A DNA stretch of 13,965 bases, taken from IMG/VR virus record IMGVR_UViG_2681813421_000009. The stretch is one strand, 5' to 3'. The stretch comes from a virus. Its lineage: Duplodnaviria; Heunggongvirae; Uroviricota; Caudoviricetes. Below the pieces are notes generated by a model. The model did not search any database. It was given only the letters and a program-made list of their open reading frames with translations, and was not told the origin of the DNA. Shown here piece by piece: positions 2,388 through 13,965 of this stretch (the stretch's first letter is position 1; each line of letters begins with the position of its first letter). A program made the translations under genes and the position numbers.

Positions 2388-2606
2388 ATGACAGTACACA
2401 AGCCAGCATCATCAGCTATCCCAACAACTGGATACATCCGTCGCTTTCGCATGCCGGAATTGCTAGGTGTTTCACTGCCTACTATTGATAGATGGGTTAA
2501 AAATGGCACTCTTCCACGCCCAGTGAAGCTAACAGATAACGTGACTGCGTTTGATGCGGTGGAAATTAATAACTGGCTGGCAGAACGCCGCGGGAAGGTG
2601 GCCTGA
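2388..2606 (+). CDS. alpA: AlpA-family (phage/prophage) transcriptional regulator, helix-turn-helix
   Basis: 72-aa ORF; the segment RFRMPELLGVSLPTIDRWVKNGTLPRPVKL is the characteristic AlpA HTH pattern. Purine-rich stretch (GAGAGG) upstream of the ATG; position after the integrase as in CP4-57/P4-like islands. Confidence 0.85.
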   Translation: MTVHKPASSAIPTTGYIRRFRMPELLGVSLPTIDRWVKNGTLPRPVKLTDNVTAFDAVEINNWLAERRGKVA

Positions 2607-3037
2607 TGGAAAAGAAAAACCGCCCATTACAGGCGGCTAATTCAGATATTCGCGTATCTGATATTACGCCCCTTACAAAATCCCTTCAAGCACCAAAGCG
2701 CACACCGAAAAAGCATCGTGCCCGAGTCTATATGCTGCGTACTGGTATAGAGGGATGGACAGAAAATGACATTCTTCGCTACTGCCGTCTGTCTTCTGGT
2801 CGTAACTATGCAACAGAGTTAGAACGCCAGCTTGGAATCACTCTGGAGCGTATCGACGAAAAGAATCCTGATGGTATCGGAACACACCTTCGCTACCGTT
2901 TCTCCTGCCGTGGTGATGTTCTGAAAGTGATCACTCATGTTAACCATCTTGCGAACATAAATGATCACAACGGACTTTCTCAGCAGGAAATTGCCGACAT
3001 TCTGAAACTCTACCCGGACGCGTTTAACGCCGCCTAA
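2606..3037 (+). CDS. hypothetical protein
   Basis: 143-aa ORF; ATG overlaps the alpA stop (TGATG), good RBS GGGAAGGTGG at 2592-2600. Basic N-terminus (KRTPKKHRAR). No recognisable family. Confidence 0.6.
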   Translation: MEKKNRPLQAANSDIRVSDITPLTKSLQAPKRTPKKHRARVYMLRTGIEGWTENDILRYCRLSSGRNYATELERQLGITLERIDEKNPDGIGTHLRYRFSCRGDVLKVITHVNHLANINDHNGLSQQEIADILKLYPDAFNAA

Positions 3038-3049
3038 CGGAGACTAAAA

Positions 3050-3883
3050 ATGAACATCGAAAAAAGCAGATTAATTTCTGAGGCCGCCCCTCATCTGAAC
3101 GCCTCTCTGGGCACAATTAACGGTAATGAATTTGCCGCAATTGTCCCGGTTATTTCTGGTCATATAGGCGGGCGTGAAACCAATATTGTTAGCGCAAAAG
3201 CGTTACACAAAGCGTTGGGCGTGGGAAAAGACTTCTCTACATGGATCACTGATCGCATCTCTGAATATGACTTCACCATTGGGCACGATTACTCAGTCCA
3301 TAAAACAATTTCCCCAAATTTGGGGAAAAGCCCGAATGACGCGGCTTACAGCAAGATTAAGCAGTCTGGCAGACCCGGCAAAGACTATCTGTTAAGTGTC
3401 GGAATGGCGAAAGAACTGGCAATGATCGAACGCAATGATCAGGGTCGCGCTATCCGCCGTTATTTCATCCAGTGCGAGAAAGAATTACAGCGTAGCGTGC
3501 CTGAAATCGCCGCCCGCTATCGTCGCCAGCTAAAAGCCCGTATCAGTGCCGCAAACAACTTCAAGCCAATGTGCGATGCGCTGAATATGGCCCGTGCCGA
3601 GATGGGGAAAACGACGCAGCAACACCACTACACAAACGAGAGCAATATGATTTCTCGTATCGTTCTTGGTGGGCTAACTGCTAAGCAGTGGGCGCGGATA
3701 AATGGCTATTCTGGCGAACCTCGCGACCATATGAACGCAGAACAGCTTGAGCACCTCTCATATCTCGAAAGCACCAATATCACGTTAATTGATATGGGCA
3801 TGGAATATGAGCAGCGCAAAGGAGAACTCACCCGCCTGTCGCAACGCTGGCTCGCCAAGCGTCTGGAGGCGGTCCATGTTTAA
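3050..3883 (+). CDS. phage antirepressor (AntA-like N-terminal domain plus KilAC domain)
   Basis: 277-aa ORF. SAKALHKALGVGKDFSTWITDRISEYDFTIGHDYSV resembles the AntA/Bro-N pattern and DYLLSVGMAKELAMIERNDQGRAIRRYFIQCEK resembles the KilAC (ANT) domain. RBS ACGGAG 8 nt upstream. Confidence 0.8.
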   Translation: MNIEKSRLISEAAPHLNASLGTINGNEFAAIVPVISGHIGGRETNIVSAKALHKALGVGKDFSTWITDRISEYDFTIGHDYSVHKTISPNLGKSPNDAAYSKIKQSGRPGKDYLLSVGMAKELAMIERNDQGRAIRRYFIQCEKELQRSVPEIAARYRRQLKARISAANNFKPMCDALNMARAEMGKTTQQHHYTNESNMISRIVLGGLTAKQWARINGYSGEPRDHMNAEQLEHLSYLESTNITLIDMGMEYEQRKGELTRLSQRWLAKRLEAVHV

Positions 3884-4058
3884 GCCGACAGGAACACCAC
3901 AACCTCAAAAACGCTACAAAGATGCCCACGGAGCACTCGTTACTGTCGAAAGCGTGTCTCACAACCGAGTGACGTTTTATCGCGACGGGTATCAATCGCC
4001 ATGCGTACAACCGCTGGCACGTTTCATGAAGGAGTTCGCGGAGGTTAACAAATGCTAA
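3876..4058 (+). CDS. small hypothetical protein (60 aa)
   Basis: ATG at 3876 overlaps the upstream stop (ATGTTTAA), indicating translational coupling. The six-frame ORF from 3789 is probably an N-terminal over-extension. Confidence 0.5.
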   Translation: MFKPTGTPQPQKRYKDAHGALVTVESVSHNRVTFYRDGYQSPCVQPLARFMKEFAEVNKC

Positions 4059-4713
4059 CCGCCCAGAAGAAGATATTTTCACTGGCTGGTATGTCGCCAA
4101 AATCCAGCAATATGACAGCAAAGTCAGACATTAATACAGCAGATACAAGCAAAGTTTATCATTTGCTGGTGGTAGGAGCGGATGCCTTAACTATGTCAGA
4201 AATTACGGTCGATGGTGTTAGCGTTGAGAAGGTCAGCGGCTATGCCAGAGAATTTCTGGTCGTAGATGGCTTTCTCTGCTCGTGTAGTGACTCCACAAAA
4301 ACCTTCGTCCACGCGCGTGACGTTAACGAAATGAGCGCGATGTACTGTGCTTCTGGTTCTTCCAATAGTGAGTTTTCGGAGTCCATAAAAAAGAGCTTGC
4401 CGTTATGCGGCAACACGGTTTATGGTTATAAGGCACCTCATAAAACGGGTGCCGGGATTGGCGTCCTAAAAATTCTGAAGGCGACATATGACGCGCCAAG
4501 CGTCTTTTTTTATGTCGTAGGTCTGACTCACCCATTTTTTGGGCGTTGGTGTATAATCCAGCGCCTTTGTCAATCAATGGTGGCTCAGGCGGGGGCTTCT
4601 TCGGAAGCGCCGGTATCCTTCAGAGCCGGTTACGCCAACCCTGTCTGGGCTACCACCAGCGAAATTGGCGTTTCCGGTGGTAGCGTAACCTGCTATCTGA
4701 AGGAGGCTGCCAC
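4052..4713 (+). CDS. hypothetical protein, 3' boundary unresolved (six-frame ORF runs without a stop to 5119)
   Basis: ATG at 4052 overlaps the upstream stop (ATGCTAA). The N-terminal ~150 codons look protein-like, but the 3' part crosses a strongly structured region and the RBS-supported Icd-like gene in another frame. End coordinate is a placeholder, not an observed stop. Confidence 0.3.
4595..4690 (+). ncRNA. candidate structured regulatory RNA upstream of icd (possibly C4/CI-type antisense RNA)
   Basis: Hairpin GCTTC-TTCG-GAAGC (4595-4608) with a UUCG tetraloop. Nested stem GGTTAC (4628-4633) / GTAACC (4685-4690) enclosing a perfect 9-bp stem GCTACCACC (4649-4657) / GGTGGTAGC (4676-4684). 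Located immediately 5' of the Icd-like gene. Confidence 0.3.
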
Positions 4714-4908
4714 ATGCTGGCTACTACCCCTACCCAAAAAACGCAATTTATCTGGATTATCGCCGCAGTTCGCCGCGATTGCCCGACAATTACCGCCAAA
4801 ATTCATCATATTGCTGCCGAGTCTGAACGCGATGCTCGCCGTTCTCTGGTGCGCGATCACGTCTGCTTTTTTGCTGGTCGTATCCGCATGGAGGTGGCAC
4901 ATGATTAA
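4714..4908 (+). CDS. Icd-like protein (host cell division inhibitor Icd family)
   Basis: 64-aa ORF with strong RBS AGGAGG at 4701-4706, 7 nt before the ATG. Sequence pattern FIWIIAAVRRD...ERDARRSLVRDHV.FFAGRI matches my recollection of Icd-like proteins of P1/P4-type elements. Confidence 0.7.
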   Translation: MLATTPTQKTQFIWIIAAVRRDCPTITAKIHHIAAESERDARRSLVRDHVCFFAGRIRMEVAHD

Positions 4909-5119
4909 AACCTACGATGTGCATATGGATCCCCTCGAACGCACAAGCCAGATCATCACACTGACAGAAGTGATTAACGACATTCTGGTGAGCAACTCTC
5001 CCTCACGAGACGAAAGACTGAAGGCGTTACTCGCGATATTGGATCTCGCCGTTCGTGACGTTCATTTCCTGCTGGAAGGTGGCGAAATGCCAGTAAAAAC
5101 GGGGGCAACCAATGAATAA
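4901..5119 (+). CDS. small hypothetical protein (72 aa)
   Basis: ATG at 4901 preceded by GGAGGTG (4890-4896) and overlapping the Icd-like stop (ATGATTAA). Same frame as the long 4052 ORF, but this internal start has its own RBS. Confidence 0.5.
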   Translation: MIKTYDVHMDPLERTSQIITLTEVINDILVSNSPSRDERLKALLAILDLAVRDVHFLLEGGEMPVKTGATNE

Positions 5120-5306
5120 CTCAATTAATACCCCTCGCCTTACGTCCGCACTTCAATTAATCGAGCAAGCAGCGGCTGTCCTGGTTGCTGTCAGTCTTTC
5201 GGCTGAAGAAATGGACGCTGCTGATGTCGTGGATGCGATTAAAGCGTGCTCATCTTTGGTTAACGATGCCCGTGCAGAGCTGGTAATTCTTGGTGGTGAA
5301 AAATGA
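5112..5306 (+). CDS. small hypothetical protein (64 aa)
   Basis: ATG overlaps the upstream stop (ATGAATAA); part of the coupled operon. Confidence 0.5.
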   Translation: MNNSINTPRLTSALQLIEQAAAVLVAVSLSAEEMDAADVVDAIKACSSLVNDARAELVILGGEK

Positions 5307-5566
5307 ATATCAACTTAATTTATCGTCATCCGTGTGAGCTGGAAATTGAATCATTGCTGGGGCGCGAAGAGCCATATCCAGACACATTCACTCCCGCAGA
5401 TTGCGCGACTGAACGGCTTACCAGAGCGCGCACAGGTCTGGTTCATGTGATGAATGAGATTATTCCCTCGGTGGGAGGGGAACAGGCGACAGTAATCAAT
5501 AGCTGGCTACAAAAAGTTACCTCCCTGATAGATATCAGTTTAATCGATGTGGAGAGTGCGAAATGA
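5303..5566 (+). CDS. small hypothetical protein (87 aa)
   Basis: ATG overlaps upstream stop (ATGA); RBS GGTGGTGA upstream. Confidence 0.55.
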   Translation: MNINLIYRHPCELEIESLLGREEPYPDTFTPADCATERLTRARTGLVHVMNEIIPSVGGEQATVINSWLQKVTSLIDISLIDVESAK

Positions 5567-5784
5567 CCAACATCCAGCTCATTGAAGCGCAATGTCGCAT
5601 CGAACAGGTTCAGACTGTTTTAGGGTTCTGGCTTGAAGGGGCCAGCCCAAGCAACAGAGACAAGTTAATGATTGGCGCGGTTATGTCACTGCTCAATGGC
5701 GTACCAGAAGCTATTCAGGAAGCGGACGAATTGTTGGGCAAATATGAGTTACAGAATCATTCAGGCGAGGCGAAACATGAATAA
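5563..5784 (+). CDS. small hypothetical protein (73 aa)
   Basis: ATG overlaps upstream stop (ATGA); RBS GGAGAG upstream. Confidence 0.55.
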   Translation: MTNIQLIEAQCRIEQVQTVLGFWLEGASPSNRDKLMIGAVMSLLNGVPEAIQEADELLGKYELQNHSGEAKHE

Positions 5785-6379
5785 TTTCTTAACTTTCCAT
5801 GCAGAAGCAACGCCTGGCGGCGTAAACATCATGTACCGCAGCAACGATGGCATGACAGAACGCGTTGAGGCCGTCTCATATATTGATGCCGTAAATCGTC
5901 TGGATGCCGGGGATTATGACGATAAACCAGATGAAGGTATGTCAATACATCTCGCTATTGCCGATGGCGGCAACCAGGGATATTTCGATTACACATCACA
6001 GCATAACGTCATTATGTGGAGATGGCTGATCGCAACAGTATTCATGCTGGAAATGAGAGAGGAAAACGGCACCGTCAGCATTATTGATGACAGTGGCAAT
6101 CATTCCGTGGTTTCTGTTTATTCCAATGGCATCGTCGCCATGCCGCTGTATCCAGTAGCAGAGCGCCTCGCTATGGCAAACAACATTGAGGGCGCAATGA
6201 TCGAGAAATATGGTGTTGATGTCGGAACAAAGAATGCCATCATTTTTTACAGCAACATGTTCGATGTCGAACAGGGAACACTCACTTCGTTTGGGCGAGA
6301 AGTGCTTGCCGATCTTCACAACAGCTTTATTGCCGAACTAAACGAAAACGGCATCCCAGAAGCACCAGTGACGCACTAA
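5777..6379 (+). CDS. hypothetical acidic protein (200 aa)
   Basis: Internal ATG at 5777 (MNNFLTF...) overlaps the upstream stop (ATGAATAA) and has RBS AGGCGAGG. The six-frame ORF from 5672 is probably an over-extension into the preceding gene. Confidence 0.55.
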   Translation: MNNFLTFHAEATPGGVNIMYRSNDGMTERVEAVSYIDAVNRLDAGDYDDKPDEGMSIHLAIADGGNQGYFDYTSQHNVIMWRWLIATVFMLEMREENGTVSIIDDSGNHSVVSVYSNGIVAMPLYPVAERLAMANNIEGAMIEKYGVDVGTKNAIIFYSNMFDVEQGTLTSFGREVLADLHNSFIAELNENGIPEAPVTH

Positions 6380-6391
6380 ACGGGGGCCAGA

Positions 6392-8743
6392 ATGCGAAAC
6401 ATTGATCTTATCCGTCAGGTTATCAGTGCGTCTGAAAACAACTGGCCTCATGTGCTGGACTGCCTGAACATAAATGTCCCTGACTCTCCGCGCCGTCATG
6501 CTCCCTGCCCTGCATGTGGGGGCAAAGATCGATTCCGGTTCGATGACAACGGGCGCGGTAGCTTCATCTGTAATCAGTGCGGCGCTGGTGATGGGCTGGA
6601 TTTAATTAAACGCGTAAATAACTGCGACACAACAGAGGCGGCGCTTCTTGCCGCTGATGTTCTGGGTATTGATTACCGGACAACGGAAACACCAGAAGCC
6701 ACCAGCCAGAAACGGGAACAACTGGAAACCGAGCGCCAGCGACGCGAACAGGAGCGCCTGAAAAGGGCAGAGAAGGACGAACAACAAAGACGGGATACGT
6801 TTTCCCGTCAGTTTGATGACATGCGCAGAAAGGCTGTAAACGGCAAATCTGATTATCTGGTTGCGAAAGGGGTAGGTGATTTTACATTCCCTGTGTTGCC
6901 CGATGGATCTCTGTTGCTGGCGCTGGTGGATAAATCCGGCGCAGTCACAGCAGCACAGACTATTACCTCACATGGTGAAAAAAGACTCCTGACAGGTTCA
7001 GCAAAGCGAGGGGCATATCACGCCATAAACGCACAGAAACGACCTCACAGCATCATAATTGCTGAGGGGGTGGCTACCGCCCTGTCGTGCCATTTAATTC
7101 GCCCTGACGCAATGACAGTGGCAGCAATCGACGCTGGCAACCTGTTGCCAGTAGCGGAAGTCATGCGCAGAACATATCCACAGGCACAAATCATCATTGC
7201 CGCAGATAACGATCACCAGCAAGGAAACTCCGAAAGTGGAGGGATCAACACGGGGAAAGATGCCGCAGAGAGGGCCGCTATTTCCGTAGCTGGCTGGGTG
7301 TCTCTGCCACCGACTGACTATAAAGCCGACTGGAACGACTATCACCAACAACACGGGCTGGCGGCAGCCACAGCAGCATTTAAAGATTCGATGTACCAGC
7401 CACGGGGGAAAGGGGCGCAGGTGAAAAATCACAAACAGTCAGTCGGGGCGCTGAATGAGATCAGTTCTGGCGAGGTGTTAAGCGATGATGAAATTGCTGT
7501 CCTCGAAGAAATCAACCGGACGTTTACGCATGTCACCATCGGCGGGAAACACAAGGTGGTGTCGCTAAAGCCTTCTCAAACCGGCGGTGTATCGCACGTT
7601 TTCGAGGATTTATCACAATTTCAGCATTATTTTCATCATAAACCGAGAGTCGCCAGAAAGCTGGCGGGATCGGCGTGGCTGTCATGGAGTGGGAAGAACT
7701 ACAAGCCAGGAGGCGTAGGATTTTATCCAGTACCAGACAAATGCCCTGACGATGTTTTTAATCTGTATGAGGGGCTGGCACTGGAACCAATTGAAGGAGA
7801 TTGCACGGTATACCTTAATCACCTGTTGCAGGTTGTCTGTGCCGGTAATGAAGAGGCATACCAATATCTTATCCAGTGGATGGCGCACATTATCCAAAAG
7901 CCTGATGAAAAACCGTCCGTGGCAATCGTGATGAAATCTGTCCCGGGCACAGGGAAAGGCACAACGGTTAAACCGCTGCTGCAAATACTGGGGCAGTACG
8001 CCGCCCACATTAACGGGGCGGGACATATTTCAGGGCGCTTCAATTCAATACTTGCTAACAAGCTACTGGTATTTGCTGACGAAGTGACGATCCACAAGCC
8101 GTCTGAAGCTGACAGACTTAAAGCGATTATTAGCGAACCGACGTTTAACCTTGAGCGCAAGGGAATTGATGCTGAACCAATGCCGAATTTTGCCCGGTTG
8201 ATATTTGCCAGTAACAGCACACAGGTATTACAGGCAGGGATAAGAGAGCGCCGCTATCTCGTGCTTGAGCCATCTCCTGAAAAAGCACAGAGCCGGGAGT
8301 ATTTTGATCGGCTGTACAGTTGGCTTAATGATGGCGGTGCCGCAAAGTTGCTTTGGCATCTTAAAGGGGTGGATCTCTCAGGTTTTGACCCTCAACGAGC
8401 GCCACAGACCGATGCCTTACGTGAAGAAATCTTGCTGGGGCTGTCTGGCGTTGAATTGTTTCTTTATGGCGAGCTAATCAATGAACCTCCGTTTAATGGC
8501 GAAGTCCGTTTGTTTGCAAAGGATATGGTTAGTCGATTTGTAGCGTGGTCGCTTGAGCGTGGGGAAAAGCTTAAAGAACCAGCTGCCAGATCACTACTGG
8601 GTAAATCACTTGCACAAATGGGGCTGGTGAAGCATGGAAGACCAGACCGAGGGAATGGCGTGTTCTACGAACTACCAGAGGTCGGAGTTCTACAGGCTGC
8701 GTTTGCCCGTCTGATCGGTATGGGGGGTTATGATGTTTTTTAA
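6392..8743 (+). CDS. P4-alpha-type primase/helicase (Zn-ribbon, Toprim primase, D5-like helicase)
   Basis: 783-aa ORF. N-terminal zinc ribbon (CPACGGKDRFRF...FICNQCG), Toprim motifs (IIIAEGVATALS and IIIAADNDHQ), C-terminal Walker A (VPGTGKGTT, about 7945-7970) and Walker B (LLVFADEV). RBS GGGGG upstream of the ATG. Confidence 0.9.
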   Translation: MRNIDLIRQVISASENNWPHVLDCLNINVPDSPRRHAPCPACGGKDRFRFDDNGRGSFICNQCGAGDGLDLIKRVNNCDTTEAALLAADVLGIDYRTTETPEATSQKREQLETERQRREQERLKRAEKDEQQRRDTFSRQFDDMRRKAVNGKSDYLVAKGVGDFTFPVLPDGSLLLALVDKSGAVTAAQTITSHGEKRLLTGSAKRGAYHAINAQKRPHSIIIAEGVATALSCHLIRPDAMTVAAIDAGNLLPVAEVMRRTYPQAQIIIAADNDHQQGNSESGGINTGKDAAERAAISVAGWVSLPPTDYKADWNDYHQQHGLAAATAAFKDSMYQPRGKGAQVKNHKQSVGALNEISSGEVLSDDEIAVLEEINRTFTHVTIGGKHKVVSLKPSQTGGVSHVFEDLSQFQHYFHHKPRVARKLAGSAWLSWSGKNYKPGGVGFYPVPDKCPDDVFNLYEGLALEPIEGDCTVYLNHLLQVVCAGNEEAYQYLIQWMAHIIQKPDEKPSVAIVMKSVPGTGKGTTVKPLLQILGQYAAHINGAGHISGRFNSILANKLLVFADEVTIHKPSEADRLKAIISEPTFNLERKGIDAEPMPNFARLIFASNSTQVLQAGIRERRYLVLEPSPEKAQSREYFDRLYSWLNDGGAAKLLWHLKGVDLSGFDPQRAPQTDALREEILLGLSGVELFLYGELINEPPFNGEVRLFAKDMVSRFVAWSLERGEKLKEPAARSLLGKSLAQMGLVKHGRPDRGNGVFYELPEVGVLQAAFARLIGMGGYDVF

Positions 8744-10480: not shown

Positions 10481-10654
10481 ATGGCTATTTCAGTAAAGCC
10501 AGTATTGATAAGTGAGAAGCAAATGGAAGCGATAAAGAAAATTCAGGAGGAGCAGCGTAAAAAATCAGAGGTAGGAGTTGCGCCAACGATCCACGAAATT
10601 GCTCGGGGATTAATGGATAAGGCGCTGGCTTACACTTTAACTGGACGTGGGTAA
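10481..10654 (+). CDS. small DNA-binding-like protein (57 aa, possible ribbon-helix-helix fold)
   Basis: ATG at 10481 with RBS AAGGGGGG 5 nt upstream. The six-frame ORF from 10352 would overlap the terminator hairpin and has no RBS. The RHH call is a guess from size and charge pattern only. Confidence 0.5.
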   Translation: MAISVKPVLISEKQMEAIKKIQEEQRKKSEVGVAPTIHEIARGLMDKALAYTLTGRG

Positions 10655-10658
10655 ATTT

Positions 10659-12002
10659 ATGGCTACGTGGCAACAGGGTATTAATTCTGGTGGTTTTCTG
10701 GCTGGCATCGGTGCGCAAAATGAGAATGCGCCAAAGGCAAGCGACATTAACGCAACGCTTGGTCTGATCCGCGAAAACAATGAACTGGCTCGCTCAGGTG
10801 CAAATAACGTTGCTCTGACAGGTCTTCGTGGTCTGGCTGGAGTTGCTGACATTTATAAGCAGCAGCAACAGCAGGAACGTAAAGCGGCATTCCAGAAAGG
10901 TTATGCAGATGCTTATGCGTCCGGTGACAGGGAGCAGATGCGTAATCTTATTACAGCATTCCCAGAAGAGTTTGAGGAAGTCCGTAAAGGGATGAGTTAT
11001 GTCGATGATGCTCAAAGGGATGATTATGGCAATCTGGCGCTCAAAGCACAGGTAGCCTCATCGCTTGGTCAGGGCGCATTTGGCAGGTTCATGATGGATA
11101 ATGAGCAGGAGATGCGTCGTTTAGGTATCCCTCCAGAAACTATTGCTGAAATGCAGGTTAATGACCCGCAGGGCTTCCAGCATTTCGCAGGTAATCTGGC
11201 GCTGTTTTCTCTCGGTCATGAGAAGTATTTCGATATCAAAGATCAAATGGAAGGTCGTCGACTTGAGCAAGGGCGACTGGATGAAAGTATGCGTCAGGCT
11301 GACATGGAGAACGCGAGAGGATGGGCAAATATCCAGAACGCTCAACTAGACAGGGCTCAGCGAGCACAAATTCACTCAGATGAGATGGGATTGAAGCTAA
11401 TGGAGCTGGGGCAAAAAGGTAAGCCGTCAGCAGACTTAATTAAGGGATTAAATTCTGACATTACCAATTTTGGCAAAAATTATAACTCTGTCAGAGCGGC
11501 GGCAAACTCTCTGCAAGCCCTTAGCAAGGTAAATACTGGCGCTGCCCAACTTGGGATTATCTTCAACTACATGAAATCTCTTGACCCGCAGTCAGTCGTT
11601 CGTGAAGGCGAACAGGTTCAGGTAATGCGGTCTGATGGCATATGGGGACAAATCAAAGGATACATAGACCAGCTTAATGCTGGAAACGGCCTGTCGCAGG
11701 AGGCAAAGGATAACATTGTTAACGCCGCAAAAATCAACGCCAATGCTATGGGGCAGCAGTTTAACCAGCAGGTTGACGAGTATCTCGATACATATGGAGA
11801 AACTATTCCTCAGGGGCTAAGAAAAAGCCTTGAAAGAAGGAAAGCGAAGCTATTTGACGATGTTTCCGGGCAGCCTACATCACAGGCTGGCACTGGACAG
11901 GCAAAAGCGGCAACCGGAGGAATATCAGAAGGCGCAACGGCAACCAACCCTAAAACTGGTCAGAAAATCATTTACAGGAACGGAAAATGGCAGCAAATGT
12001 AA
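10659..12002 (+). CDS. hypothetical Gln-rich, coiled-coil-like protein (about 447 aa)
   Basis: ATG at 10659, 4 nt after the upstream stop; a GTG at 10647 is the alternative start. Contains a QQQQQ run and many Q/E/R-rich predicted helical segments. No catalytic motif recognised. Confidence 0.6.
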   Translation: MATWQQGINSGGFLAGIGAQNENAPKASDINATLGLIRENNELARSGANNVALTGLRGLAGVADIYKQQQQQERKAAFQKGYADAYASGDREQMRNLITAFPEEFEEVRKGMSYVDDAQRDDYGNLALKAQVASSLGQGAFGRFMMDNEQEMRRLGIPPETIAEMQVNDPQGFQHFAGNLALFSLGHEKYFDIKDQMEGRRLEQGRLDESMRQADMENARGWANIQNAQLDRAQRAQIHSDEMGLKLMELGQKGKPSADLIKGLNSDITNFGKNYNSVRAAANSLQALSKVNTGAAQLGIIFNYMKSLDPQSVVREGEQVQVMRSDGIWGQIKGYIDQLNAGNGLSQEAKDNIVNAAKINANAMGQQFNQQVDEYLDTYGETIPQGLRKSLERRKAKLFDDVSGQPTSQAGTGQAKAATGGISEGATATNPKTGQKIIYRNGKWQQM

Positions 12003-13792
12003 TCTTACCGGAAGGTTTTGTGCTCGATGAACAACCTGATAACTCACAGTTTCCTGATAGTTCACAGCTTCCTGATGGTTTTGTGCTTGATGCCCAACCA
12101 GAACAGCAGCAATCACCTTTGGTTTCACCAGAGGAAAATTCCAGACAGGAAAATGTTGTTAATAATGCTAACGGTTTCGACCGTTTTATGTATGGCGTTC
12201 TCAGTGGATTGATGGATGTTGGTAAAGGTGTTGGCCTGTTTCAGGATATGACACCAGAAGAGCAAGCCGCAATTCAGTCTCTACAGCAGAAGTTAGCGGC
12301 AAAACCATCAACCGCACAAGATGTTGGTGAGTTCGTTGGACAAGCAGCGCCATTTGTTAGTGGTGGTGGGATTATTTCTCAGGTTCCCAAAGGGGCGGCA
12401 AGACTGGCTGCCGCCGCAGGGCTTGGTGCTGGAGAAGGGGCTATTGTAGCCAATGGAACAAATAGCGATGTTGCTTCCGGCGCTGCTATTGGCGCTGTGG
12501 CTGGCCCTGTAGCCGAACTTGCTGGCCCTGCAATTAATAAAATAGCTGGGAAATTAACCAAGAAGAATGTTTCTTCGATTCCAGATATTGAGGGGATTAC
12601 TCCTGCCGAAGAGAAAATTCGTAAGTTATCTGCACAAGGCAACCCAAATCTTGCCTCTTCGCTTGAAGGGCTAGATCTAAAACCTCAGAAAGAAATTGTT
12701 GAGGCTGCAAATAGGCTTCATGTTGATTCAGTTCTTCCTTCTCATTTATCAGGAAATGAGCAATACCAAGCTGTAGAGCAAGCCCTAAAGTCACGGACAG
12801 GATCAGCGTTAAAAGCTCAAGAAGATAAAGCAATAAGCGAATTAGCCTCTAGTGCTGGCAAGATAATCGATGATGTTGCTGGTGCGCCAGATGCGTTAGC
12901 TATGAGCGAAAAATATATTTATCAGATAAATAGTAGAATGGAAGCACTAAAAAACCGTAGTGATCAGTTATATAAACGTGTTGATTCCGCTCTATCACCA
13001 AGAACAAAAGTCGAAGCAAATAACACAAGCACTATGCTGGAAAAAATCGCTGATGATTTAGGAGGGTGGGATAATCTTGACCCAATAGAAAAGCGAGTTT
13101 TTACAGCAATAAACCCCGGCCCAGATAGCATCCTAACGTATGCAAATTTAAACAGGCAAAGGCGTTTAGTTGGTGATGCCCTAAATAAAAAGCAGGGGCC
13201 ATACAAAGATGCTGATAAAGAAGCGCTATCAAGACTATATGGAGCTTTAGCTGAAGACCAAAAATCTGTCTTATCCAATACTGGATACTTGCGAGATTTC
13301 GAAGTCGCACAACGCCTTGTAGCTATGAGAAAAAACTTAGAAAGGCAAATGGTAAATCTTCGCGGGAAAACACTTAATGGGGATATAGCGTATAAAGTAA
13401 CGAATTCTCTTCAATCTATGGCAAAAGGTGATGCGAGAGGGTTTCGTGAGATTATGCAAAATACTCCATCAAGAACATTGCGAAGGGAGCTAGTAGGAAC
13501 AGCATTAAGAGATATGCTTTCCTCTGGGAAGCGTGGGGCCGACTTTAATCCATCTGGCTTCGCAGATTGGTGGCAAAACTTGCAACACAGTGGACAGCTA
13601 AAGACTTTGGCTGAACATTTGCCAAAAGAAACAATGAGCGGACTATATGATGTATACAAAGTTGCCAGAGCAATAAAAAATGCTAAAGCGCATGAAATAT
13701 CTACTGGTAAGCTGAATGAGTTTGTAAACAGATTTAATCGGGTAACAGCTCCATACGAACTAGCAGCAAAGGTAGTGACTCCAACTTACTGA
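11987..13792 (+). CDS. hypothetical large protein, 3' end truncated by IS1 insertion
   Basis: ATG at 11987 with RBS AGGAA, overlapping the upstream gene by 16 nt. N-terminal tandem motif [10 protein letters not shown] / [10 protein letters not shown], then a Gly/Ala-rich segment, then an AT-rich-encoded K/E/N-rich C-terminal region. Native sequence ends at 13770; the last seven codons (VVTPTY-stop) are read from the IS1 inverted repeat. Confidence 0.6.
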
Positions 13793-13965
13793 TAGTGTTT
13801 TATGTTCAGATAATGCCCGATGACCTTGTCATGCAGCTCCACCGATTTTGAGAACGACAGTGACTTCCGTCCCAGCCTTGCCAGATGTTGTCTCAGATTC
13901 AGATTATGTCGCTCAATGCGCTGAGTGTAACGCTTGCTGATAACGTGCAGCTTTCCCTTCAGGCG
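13771..13965 (-). mobile_element. IS1-family insertion sequence, partial (continues beyond window end)
   Basis: Terminal inverted repeat GGTAGTGACTCCAACTTACTGAT at 13771-13793 matches the IS1 right-end IR at 21 of 23 positions; the adjoining sequence matches IS1 with scattered substitutions. Confidence 0.9.
13786..13965 (-). CDS. insB: IS1 transposase InsB, C-terminal fragment (partial at window edge)
   Basis: Minus-strand translation of 13786-13965 gives [59 protein letters not shown]-stop, the InsB C-terminus as I recall it. Confidence 0.85.

Follow-up and report, generated by a model that had tools for sequence, protein, structure and literature searches.

An RNA-based immunity module of the C4/CI type upstream of an Icd-like gene in a probable P4-like satellite prophage of Escherichia coli

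A strongly structured element situated just upstream of an Icd-like gene in the Caudoviricetes record IMGVR_UViG_2681813421_000009 raises the question whether an antisense RNA of the C4/CI type is encoded there and, if so, which genes it would control. The entire stretch of 13,965 nucleotides analysed in this study (hereafter the window) was found to be 100% identical to a segment of an E. coli chromosome, and the island in which the element lies carries integrase, AlpA and primase genes. From the identities and folds of the RNAs, four target sites, covariation, gene context and homology to P4, all observed directly in this study, we consider it very probable that this region serves a P4-like satellite prophage, integrated next to yicC of E. 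coli, as its RNA-based immunity module.

A preliminary description of the locus had proposed a possible C4/CI-type antisense RNA at 4595-4690, and the covariance-model search bears out the RNA family: Rfam RF01695 (C4 antisense RNA) matches 4573-4660 on the plus strand with 79.9 bits against a gathering threshold of 45 (E = 1e-14), over the whole model (positions 1-87 of 87). The parts of this RNA are as follows.

4573..4660, plus strand: C4/CI-type antisense RNA (Rfam RF01695, minimum-free-energy fold, covariation)
4578-4594 with 4639-4655, plus strand: C4 basal stem, 17 bp (Rfam model fold)
4595-4608, plus strand: C4 hairpin 1 with UUCG loop, GCUUC-UUCG-GAAGC (sequence and Rfam C4 model)
4609-4630, plus strand: C4 hairpin 2 (Rfam C4 model)

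The UUCG-tetraloop hairpin noticed earlier is hairpin 1 of the Rfam model. The folding energy of 4573-4660 is -46.4 kcal/mol (z = -4.8; 0 of 200 shuffles equally good), and its minimum-free-energy fold is identical with the fold of the model. A permissive Rfam scan of 4300-5000 gave no families besides C4 and isrK, the RNAs referred to as CI and seqA, respectively, in P4-like prophages (PMC3632133, PMC4825925). C4 is a substrate of RNase P (PMC3378863), and in P1/P7 its stable form, about 77-80 nt long, arises by processing of a longer transcript.

For the analysis of conservation, the DNA skeleton of C4 with fixed spacing was employed as a probe, because an alignment of four Icd proteins held no conserved stretch usable as a seed for genome scans. 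The probe fixed only the invariant ATGGT, GGG and the stem of hairpin 2, leaving the loops, most stem positions and all targets free. After removal of L028 and L115 as chance hits from a total of 120 matches, the relatives from other species comprised 111-114 loci, with target counts on 114 loci and covariation statistics on an alignment of 111 sequences. The basal stem is 99.0% paired in the 111 loci and shows two-sided changes at 8 of its 17 pairs, and hairpin 1 is 99.8% paired, with two-sided changes at all 5 pairs; the stem of hairpin 2 is invariant, which is uninformative because the search pattern had fixed it. When the C4 fold is taken together with the loop-target pairings described below (a'/a2 and b'/b2), the alignment is 97.8% paired, compared with 77.2% in shuffles and 34-46% in slid controls, and the covariation score is 0.569 versus 0.187. 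Compensatory changes, whose absence from homologous elements would have spoken against the proposal according to the preliminary description, occur in large numbers, in the stems as well as in the pairings of loops with targets.

Two segments of C4 were identified as recognition elements, and each of them finds a perfect complement of 7-9 nt twice on the same strand, one pair upstream (a1/b1) and one pair downstream (a2/b2). Targets had been anticipated near the icd ribosome-binding site (RBS) and further upstream, and they were detected at both places.

4616..4624, plus strand: b' recognition loop in hairpin 2, UCCUUCAGA (complementarity and covariation)
4632..4638, plus strand: a' recognition segment, ACGCCAA, unpaired between hairpin 2 and the basal stem (complementarity and covariation)
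4458..4464, plus strand: a1 target, TTGGCGT, in the loop of isrK hairpin 2, complement of a'
4474..4481, plus strand: b1 target, TCTGAAGG, single-stranded, directly 5' of the isrK terminator, complement of b'
4665..4671, plus strand: a2 target, TTGGCGT, complement of a', part of the equivalent of P4 seqC
4696..4706, plus strand: b2 target, TCTGAAGGA, at 4696-4704, complement of b', overlapping the icd/kil Shine-Dalgarno sequence (4700-4706)

The predicted duplexes have energies of -15.5 kcal/mol (a1 with a') and -18.8 kcal/mol (b2 with b'). Among the 114 loci, a complement of at least 7 nt to the locus's own a' is present upstream, as a1, in 92% (7% with mismatched partners) and, as a2, in 95% (3% in the control), while complements to the own b' are present as b1 in 63% and as b2 in 87% (6% in each control). 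In the 111-sequence alignment 98.7% pairing was found for a'/a2, where two-sided changes affect 6 of 7 pairs, and 95.2% for the variable part of b'/b2, where they affect 6 of 6. Loops and targets differ in sequence among the window, P4, N15, SfV and the P1-like RCS47 but are matched within each element, and as many as 84 a'/b' combinations occur among the 114 loci. This diversity implies that the loop sequence could mark the immunity type of satellites and prophages.

Both a1 and b1 lie within a second RNA, ahead of its terminator. Rfam RF01394 (isrK) matches 4433-4510 over the full model with 60.5 bits against a gathering threshold of 50.

4433..4510, plus strand: isrK/seqA-type leader RNA with a1 and b1 and, at its 3' end, an intrinsic terminator (Rfam RF01394)
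4490..4510 (hairpin 4490-4504), plus strand: intrinsic terminator of the isrK-like RNA, equivalent of P4 t1, GACGC-GCCAA-GCGTC plus a U run (terminator scan, Rfam isrK structure, fold)
4397..4426, plus strand: putative constitutive promoter, equivalent of P4 PLE, TTGCCG-18 nt-TATGGT, predicted start about 4433 (read from the sequence)
4541..4566, plus strand: subfamily-specific hairpin with a TGTATAAT loop, containing a perfect -10 hexamer at 4552-4557 (7 of 114 loci, same distance, covarying arms)

The system has three parts on one strand, i.e., the isrK leader with a1/b1, the C4 RNA, and a2/b2 with b2 over the RBS of icd. The promoter is designated putative since it was not called by a simple promoter scan, its match of 8/12 to the consensus being below the threshold; its geometry, with the end of the -10 hexamer 7 nt ahead of the first base of isrK, is common to P4, N15, SfV and RCS47. 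Folding of the nascent leader gave a weak alternative pairing of 4-5 bp, on which we do not base a claim that C4 binding disrupts an antiterminator. The hairpin in the gap between the two RNAs ends 11 nt, and its -10 hexamer 19 nt, ahead of the ATGGT at the start of the C4 stem; this TATAAT at 4552-4557 was rejected as a general second promoter, being present in only 7 of 114 loci, within a covarying hairpin loop and without a good -35.

What follows b2 is an Icd-like gene and, behind it, a set of closely spaced genes.

4714..4908, plus strand: Icd-like/P4 Kil-like gene, 64 aa (NCBIfam NF033153)
4901..8743, plus strand: tightly packed operon of five small ORFs and then a primase-helicase (ORF list, RefSeq annotation)
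6392-8743, plus strand: primase-helicase, 783 aa (Pfam Zn_Ribbon_Prim, Toprim_3 and DUF5906; phrog_2249 DNA primase, 1e-92)
4052..4711, plus strand: Eta/Ash-like reading frame over both RNA genes (ORF list, tblastn)

The assignment of an RBS-supported icd-like gene holds: the Shine-Dalgarno sequence AAGGAGG (4700-4706), overlapped by b2 (4696-4704), precedes the ATG at 4714, and the protein scores 71.6 bits with NF033153 (cutoff 25), being 40% identical to the 65-aa ORF of P4 and 26% identical to P1 Icd. The first 50 nt of the gene are rich in C (0.30) and poor in G (0.14), as are the first 45 nt of the ORF start after b2 in 91 loci (C 0.36, G 0.13), and this C-rich, G-poor 5' end is a candidate Rho-loading site. 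The small ORFs ahead of the primase-helicase overlap one another. Downstream of icd there is no antirepressor, the small hypothetical genes and the primase being found instead, and the only AntA-type gene in the window (AntA family, 3050-3883) lies upstream of the RNA module. The P1-like layout proposed earlier is correct as to c4 preceding icd, but what the switch gates is not an antirepressor: it is a replication operon of the P4 type, with the primase-helicase as its last gene.

Is the switch still of use to its element? The island shows signs of decay: its right end is cut short by an IS3 fragment, PGAP marks two of the genes as pseudogenes, the Eta-like frame is out of register with icd when compared with P4, and no Pfam or PHROG match to sid, delta, psu or epsilon was found among the window ORFs, genes similar to those for the P22 ejection proteins gp20 and gp16 being carried by the island. 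With the island apparently in partial decay, the switch may now gate a defective element, and the module could be an intact-looking relic whose RNAs are made but control nothing useful. We regard such a relic as unlikely, because each of the four target sites has kept its perfect complementarity to the loops, because the Icd-like ORF and the 783-aa primase gene, with the five small ORFs between them, form an intact and closely packed array, and because window positions 4300-5200 are matched in 1138 of 5426 complete E. coli genomes, with at least 80% of the 901 bases covered in 416 of them.

A second possibility concerns the fold. The preliminary description had drawn the element as 4595-4690, combining the UUCG hairpin with a nested long-range stem of a perfect 9 bp (4649-4657 with 4676-4684) and an outer 6 bp (4628-4633 with 4685-4690), and one might take this as the functional structure. 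Its 9-bp part stands up well.

4676..4684, plus strand: segment X, GGTGGTAGC, complement of the 3' strand of the C4 basal stem (complementarity, conservation)

Thus GCTACCACC at 4649-4657 and GGTGGTAGC at 4676-4684 are perfectly complementary, the helix is 93.3% paired across the 111 loci and shows two-sided changes at 7 of its 9 pairs, and a complement of at least 7 nt is found at the fixed distance downstream in 61% of loci versus 14% in the control. The outer stem, GGTTAC with GTAACC, is present here but only 54% paired in the 111 relatives, and it was excluded as a conserved structure; with such a low level it is probably due to chance. As a whole, the fold spanning 4595-4690 is very unlikely to be the functional one: it begins downstream of 4578-4594, the 5' side of a 17-bp basal stem that is 99% paired with 8 covarying pairs and belongs to the full-length 79.9-bit Rfam match, and it mispairs the 3' strand (4639-4655) with sequences downstream. 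Folding of 4560-4720, covering the 4560-4713 for which a folding analysis had been proposed, gave a minimum-free-energy structure in which the basal stem wins and the 9-bp helix is absent; the span 4595-4690 has a folding z of -3.0. The 9-bp helix, which competes with the basal stem for its 3' strand, is at most an alternative or transient state.

The Eta/Ash-like frame stays open as far as 5119 (355 codons), out of frame with icd, and no Pfam family was found for its residues 1-149 (window 4052-4500); PGAP annotates 4052-4687 as an 'ash family' pseudogene, tblastn with residues 32-151 of P4 Eta gives 39% identity in this frame, and a frame open through both RNA genes is found in 56% of loci versus 2-4% for other frames. 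A purely coding explanation, in which an Ash/Eta-family gene or pseudogene has RNA-like structure only incidentally, has for all these points hardly any probability and was rejected on the covariation, since it accounts neither for two-sided compensatory changes in three helices nor for the three-way match of the loops with two separate target sets, since P1-like and N15 loci keep the RNAs without an overlapping open frame, since the frame lacks a Pfam family over residues 1-149, and since RNA and coding functions coexist in P4 (PMC10111431). The translated eta ORF of P4 contains the gene for CI RNA, and kil is nested in eta (PMC10111431), and therefore translation of the region as part of an upstream protein, which had been put forward as evidence against an antisense RNA, is no valid argument for RNAs of the C4/CI family. 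In the window the RNA genes are likewise embedded in the Eta-like frame, but icd/kil is not its in-frame C-terminal part, because a 1-nt difference just before the ATG places it in another frame.

The C4/CI immunity RNA switch thus identified is of an ordinary, already known kind, and it can be compared with several known systems. The immunity region of P4 has the order PLE - seqA - t1 - cI/CI RNA - seqC - kil/eta - ... - alpha primase, so that the isrK/seqA-type RNA, the C4/CI RNA and the downstream targets follow in the same order and on the same strand; the P4 cI region aligns with about 4479-4735 of the window (75.6% identity over about 250 nt), the first gene is Kil/Icd-like (40% identity), an Eta-like frame runs over the RNA genes, and the downstream operon ends in a primase-helicase of about 780 aa. 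The recognition sequences differ (ACGCCAA and CCUUCAGA in the window; UUCUCAC and CCUGUGAA in P4), and for this reason the immunity specificity of the window should differ from that of P4. Unlike in P4, the gap between isrK and C4 is 62 nt with a TATAAT-loop hairpin (107 nt in P4), icd/kil is out of frame with the Eta-like frame, three further genes, among them that of the AntA family and one for a DUF4222 protein, separate AlpA from the RNA module, and P22-like ejection-protein genes take the place of sid, psu and delta.

The immI operon of P1/P7 (a1 b1 - c4 - a2 b2 - icd - ant1/2) shares with the window the RNA family, two a/b target sets, b2 over the icd RBS and an Icd-like first gene, but its cargo is the antirepressor ant instead of a replication operon, its Icd is only 26% identical, and the P1-like loci are without an overlapping Eta-like frame. 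The order of isrK followed by C4 on the same strand is common to P4, N15, SfV and RCS47. N15, in which CA RNA confers secondary immunity and controls antC, and the SfV 'immunity region' also carry matching targets, and a' of SfV is the same ACGCCAA as in the window; these are lambdoid or linear-plasmid prophages and not satellites, N15 gates an antirepressor, and the first downstream ORF of SfV is not Icd-like. In Gifsy-1 of Salmonella (IsrK - STnc1160/orf45 - anrP), IsrK, of the same family as the upstream RNA of the window, has an intrinsic terminator and is followed by a complementary processed RNA, and short IsrK acts in trans on the read-through transcript; its output is the antirepressor AnrP and then the toxic antiterminator AntQ, whereas that of the window is icd and the replication genes, and the region equivalent to C4 was treated by its authors as a 45-codon ORF.

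As to how the module may work, we rely for processing, the translational block, Rho polarity and autoregulation on the work with P1, P4 and Gifsy-1. The leader would be transcribed from the constitutive promoter just 5' of 4433, and transcripts reading through the isrK terminator would be processed to a stable C4 RNA of about 80 nt, the 5' end of P1 C4 being made by RNase P (cited in PMC3378863). Through b' and a', C4 would then bind b2 and a2 of subsequent transcripts by base pairing and obstruct the RBS of icd; in P1, c4 controls icd and ant by a translational block of icd with polarity on the downstream genes (PMC8198154), and the same is expected for the window. The untranslated C-rich, G-poor start of icd would lead to premature termination, probably Rho-dependent; since the terminator scan detected no intrinsic terminator downstream of C4, this step rests on Rho by analogy. 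With the replication operon, as far as the primase-helicase (6392-8743), kept off, the element would stay lysogenic and immune. Autoregulation of CI in P4 takes place through termination at t1, and here C4, when paired with a1/b1 of the leader, probably exerts feedback on termination at the isrK terminator; conversely, the short isrK-like RNA may titrate C4, an effect shown for IsrK in Gifsy-1. Transcripts started at upstream promoters would overcome this block if ribosomes read them through the region in the Eta-like frame.

Previous work on P1, P7, P4, N15 and Gifsy-1 has dealt with immunity RNAs of the C4/CI type and with their isrK/seqA partners; Rfam models exist for these RNAs, and they were reported earlier in P4-like prophages and Gram-negative PICIs. 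At this RNA module RefSeq shows only an 'ash family protein' pseudogene, so that anyone relying on the annotation would see neither of the two regulatory RNAs. The sole feature left unexplained is the conserved alternative 9-bp helix, of which we found no description. Target a2 sits in the loop of this helix, and together with the a'/a2 pairing the helix may give an H-type pseudoknot in the unprocessed transcript. Between a2 and b2 a further hairpin (4679-4685 with 4691-4697) is 63% paired in the MAFFT alignment and, given this level, is left tentative. We propose with much reserve, and hold to be unlikely, that the 9-bp helix is a functional alternative state, possibly as part of a switch of the 1:2/2:3/3:4 kind in which X pairs with 4691-4697 near the RBS. 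If so, the alternative helix might decide the fate of each transcript, that is, maturation into the C4 repressor versus being repressed; alternatively, mature C4 might lock onto the mRNA by strand exchange after loop-loop contacts. The conserved alternative helix thus provides a lead on how processing of the precursor is coordinated with repression of the target.

A scan of the whole window against Rfam gave two matches over the curated thresholds, the C4 antisense RNA (RF01695), in full length at 4573-4660 (79.9 bits against a gathering score of 45), and isrK (RF01394) at 4433-4510 (60.5 bits against a gathering score of 50), and a permissive Rfam scan of 4300-5000 detected no RNA family besides these two. 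The C4-type RNA proposed in the preliminary description is thus recovered by covariance-model search. The minimum-free-energy structure of 4573-4660 is the C4 fold (-46.4 kcal/mol, z = -4.8; 0 of 200 shuffles as stable), in which a 17-bp basal stem (4578-4594/4639-4655) surrounds a UUCG hairpin and a second hairpin (4609-4630), and this fold is retained on folding the longer segment 4560-4720. The earlier observation was real, since the UUCG hairpin (GCUUC-UUCG-GAAGC at 4595-4608) and a perfect 9-nt complementarity are both present in the sequence. The span 4595-4690 assigned to this structured RNA, however, starts within it and leaves out the 5′ strand of the basal stem, and the 3′ strand was therefore paired with downstream sequence. 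All defining features of the C4 family that can be tested in sequence are present in the element. The features surrounding it are as follows.

1-1269, integrase
2388-2606, AlpA-type regulator
3050-3883, AntA-family gene
between the AlpA-type regulator and the RNA module, DUF4222 gene
4490-4504 plus U run, isrK intrinsic terminator (terminator scan)
4714-4908, Icd-like gene (NCBIfam NF033153, 71.6 bits against a cutoff of 25)
between the Icd-like gene and the primase-helicase, five small overlapping ORFs
6392-8743, primase-helicase (783 aa)

The recognition segment a′ (ACGCCAA, 4632-4638) has perfect complements on the same strand at a1 (4458-4464) and a2 (4665-4671), and b′ (UCCUUCAGA, 4616-4624) at b1 (4474-4481) and b2 (4696-4704), likewise on the same strand. 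Both a1 and b1 lie within the isrK match, immediately 5′ of its intrinsic terminator, which stands between these upstream targets and C4, while b2 overlaps the Shine-Dalgarno sequence AAGGAGG (4700-4706) of the ORF starting with ATG at 4714. Complementary targets near the icd ribosome-binding site and further upstream, as predicted, are therefore both present, and the icd-like gene was rightly described as RBS-supported. The window thus carries two structured RNAs and four matched targets, of which b2 lies over the ribosome-binding site of icd, followed by a tightly packed operon; its layout exactly matches a1 b1 / c4 / a2 b2 of P1 and seqA / seqB / seqC of P4.

The order isrK then C4 on one strand is common to P4, N15, SfV and the P1-like phage RCS47. 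The loops of these phages are unlike those of the window, yet they fit both target sets inside each element: in P4, UUCUCAC pairs with two copies of GTGAGAA and CCUGUGAA with two copies of TTCACAGG, and in RCS47, GUCUCAA pairs with two copies of TTGAGAC and CCUUUGAC with two copies of GTCAAAGG. One genome per species was then searched with a C4 skeleton of fixed spacing (ATGGT-N10-GGG-N14-GCCGGT-NN-C-N8-CCGGT), which imposes no constraint on the loops, on any target or on most stem positions. At least 120 loci were obtained, of which 2 were removed as chance matches; C4-type RNAs (skeleton loci L006-L125) reach past Enterobacterales to Pseudomonas, Aeromonas and Halomonadaceae (Vreelandella). 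For the 114 loci with full flanks among the matches listed, perfect complementarity of 7 nt or more to the locus's own loop, as compared with the loop of a mismatched partner, was found in 92% vs 7% for a1, 95% vs 3% for a2, 63% vs 6% for b1 and 87% vs 6% for b2. In an alignment of 111 sequences among the matches listed, the canonical fold together with a′/a2 and b′/b2 is 97.8% paired (shuffles 77.2%, slid controls 34-46%), with a covariation score of 0.569 vs 0.187. Two-sided changes were identified in 8 of 17 pairs of the basal stem, 5 of 5 of hairpin 1, 6 of 7 of a′/a2 and all 6 variable pairs of b′/b2, so that compensatory changes in homologous elements are fully documented for stems and loop-target pairings alike.

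The preliminary description also included a nested long-range stem, of which only the inner part stands. Its 9-bp helix pairs 4649-4657 (GCTACCACC) with 4676-4684 (GGTGGTAGC; segment X), bordered by GGTTAC (4628-4633) and GTAACC (4685-4690). Among the matches listed, 61% of loci have a complement of the C4 3′ strand at a constant downstream spacing (control 14%), and in their alignment pairing in the helix reaches 93.3% (slid controls 29-69%), with two-sided changes at 7 of the 9 positions. Segment X is not a mere copy of the 5′ strand, because at one position the 5′ strand makes G-U in 50 sequences and X makes A-U in 51 (matches listed). As judged from the alignment, the helix is no artefact. 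The outer 6-bp stem, in contrast, is 54% paired in the relatives among the matches listed and is ruled out as a conserved structure. The 9-bp helix and the far longer basal stem are mutually exclusive, and the helix is not in the minimum-free-energy fold; in cis, its combination with a′/a2 would give a pseudoknot of the H type.

The E. coli FORC_031 chromosome contains the window at 100% identity, and the RNA module sits in an island inserted adjoining yicC; of 5426 complete E. coli genomes, 1138 have a match to 4300-5200, and in 416 of these the match covers at least 80% of those 901 bases. An operon like immI of P1 was dismissed because no ant gene lies downstream: in P1 and N15 the antirepressor follows c4, whereas the only AntA/AntB-family gene of the window is upstream. 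This gene (Bro network) belongs to an AlpA-led, tightly overlapping gene string at 2388-4058. Since the P4 cI region aligns with window ~4479-4735 (75.6% identity), the Icd-like protein is 40% identical to the 65-aa ORF following P4 cI, and a primase-helicase follows, the switch gates a P4-like replication operon and not, as in P1, an antirepressor. Most features of a P4-type immunity region are present. The element is nevertheless not P4 itself, because sid, psu and delta, present in P4, are all absent from the island and kil is in another frame than eta instead of being nested in it. At 10647-13792 the island carries genes for an ejection protein resembling P22 gp20 (246.8 bits to Pfam Inj_translocase) and for a DNA-transfer protein resembling gp16 (phrog_6704, phrog_770), unusual cargo for a satellite of the P4-like or PICI-like kind. 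A truncated IS3-family transposase fragment (~13800-13965, minus strand) adjoins the last island gene, flagged by PGAP as lacking its C-terminus, and the right end thus appears to be cut by IS insertion.

In RefSeq (PGAP), 4052-4687 is a partial pseudogene labelled 'ash family protein', and neither RNA is annotated. A 355-codon open frame (4052 to 5119), homologous to Eta residues 32-151 (39% identity), crosses isrK and C4; it also spans the whole icd gene out of frame and enters the next gene (ATG 4901). Translation through the region had been named as evidence against an RNA, but the P4 CI RNA is likewise encoded within eta, a truncated form of which is Kil, and eta translation from the upstream late promoter prevents termination (PMC10111431). 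In the P4 sequence (L002), eta (ATG at 2858, 199 codons) is a single frame through isrK, C4 and kil, whereas in the window this nesting is broken by a difference of 1 nt immediately 5′ of the icd ATG, which puts icd out of frame. Among 111 loci of the matches listed, no stop codon interrupts the eta-like frame across the two RNAs in 56% (other frames 2-4%), the P1-like and N15 loci being without it.

It has already been published that in P4-like prophages isrK corresponds to seqA and C4 to CI, and that Rfam detects both RNAs in Gram-negative satellites (PMC4825925, PMC3632133, PMC10111431), and our result is therefore a correct identification of a known system. The alternative 9-bp helix, of which no description was found in the accessible part of the literature, is the sole part with any novelty potential. 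The Gifsy-1 IsrK study treats the C4-equivalent region as a 45-codon ORF with helix d-II (PMC4825925); as read from that paper's nucleotide numbering, the AUG of 'orf45' appears to correspond to the ATG that is invariant in the C4 5′ strand (ATGGT), so that this ORF and helix d-II may represent the basal stem of C4.

By analogy to P1, P4 and Gifsy-1, C4 would be excised from read-through transcripts and base-pair with a2 and b2, blocking icd translation; the untranslated RNA would then end early, probably via Rho, leaving the replication genes silent. C4 on a1 and b1 may tune the isrK terminator and hence its own synthesis, and the short isrK-type RNA could titrate C4. Behind this scheme stand, reportedly, Citron and Schuster 1990 and Biere et al. 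1992 for P1, and Sabbattini 1995 and Briani 2000 for P4. The accounts drawn upon were those of P1 (PMC8198154), P4 (PMC4825925, PMC3632133, PMC10111431) and Gifsy-1 (PMC4825925); the 5′ end of P1 C4 is, according to a further account, produced by RNase P (PMC3378863). The start of the first ORF is C-rich and G-poor (C 0.36, G 0.13 over 45 nt; 91 loci among the matches listed). A plausible promoter at 4397-4426 (TTGCCG, 18 nt, TATGGT) is weak by consensus and has the geometry found in all four reference phages. A hairpin at 4541-4566 (arms GGGCGTTGG / CCAGCGCCT) carries in its 8-nt loop (TGTATAAT) a perfect -10 hexamer (4552-4557) ending 19 nt 5′ of the ATGGT that opens the C4 stem; it recurs with its loop in only 7 of 114 C4 loci among the matches listed, its arms covarying and its distance unchanged, and could be a second C4 promoter or a leader hairpin influencing processing.

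Among the matches listed, a′ of the window is common to 16 loci and b′ to 3, both together only with a Raoultella locus (L053), and the two segments appear to reassort independently across loci. The 114 loci among the matches listed hold at least 34 a′ variants, at least 65 b′ variants and at least 84 a′/b′ combinations, a diversity consistent with many immunity specificities.
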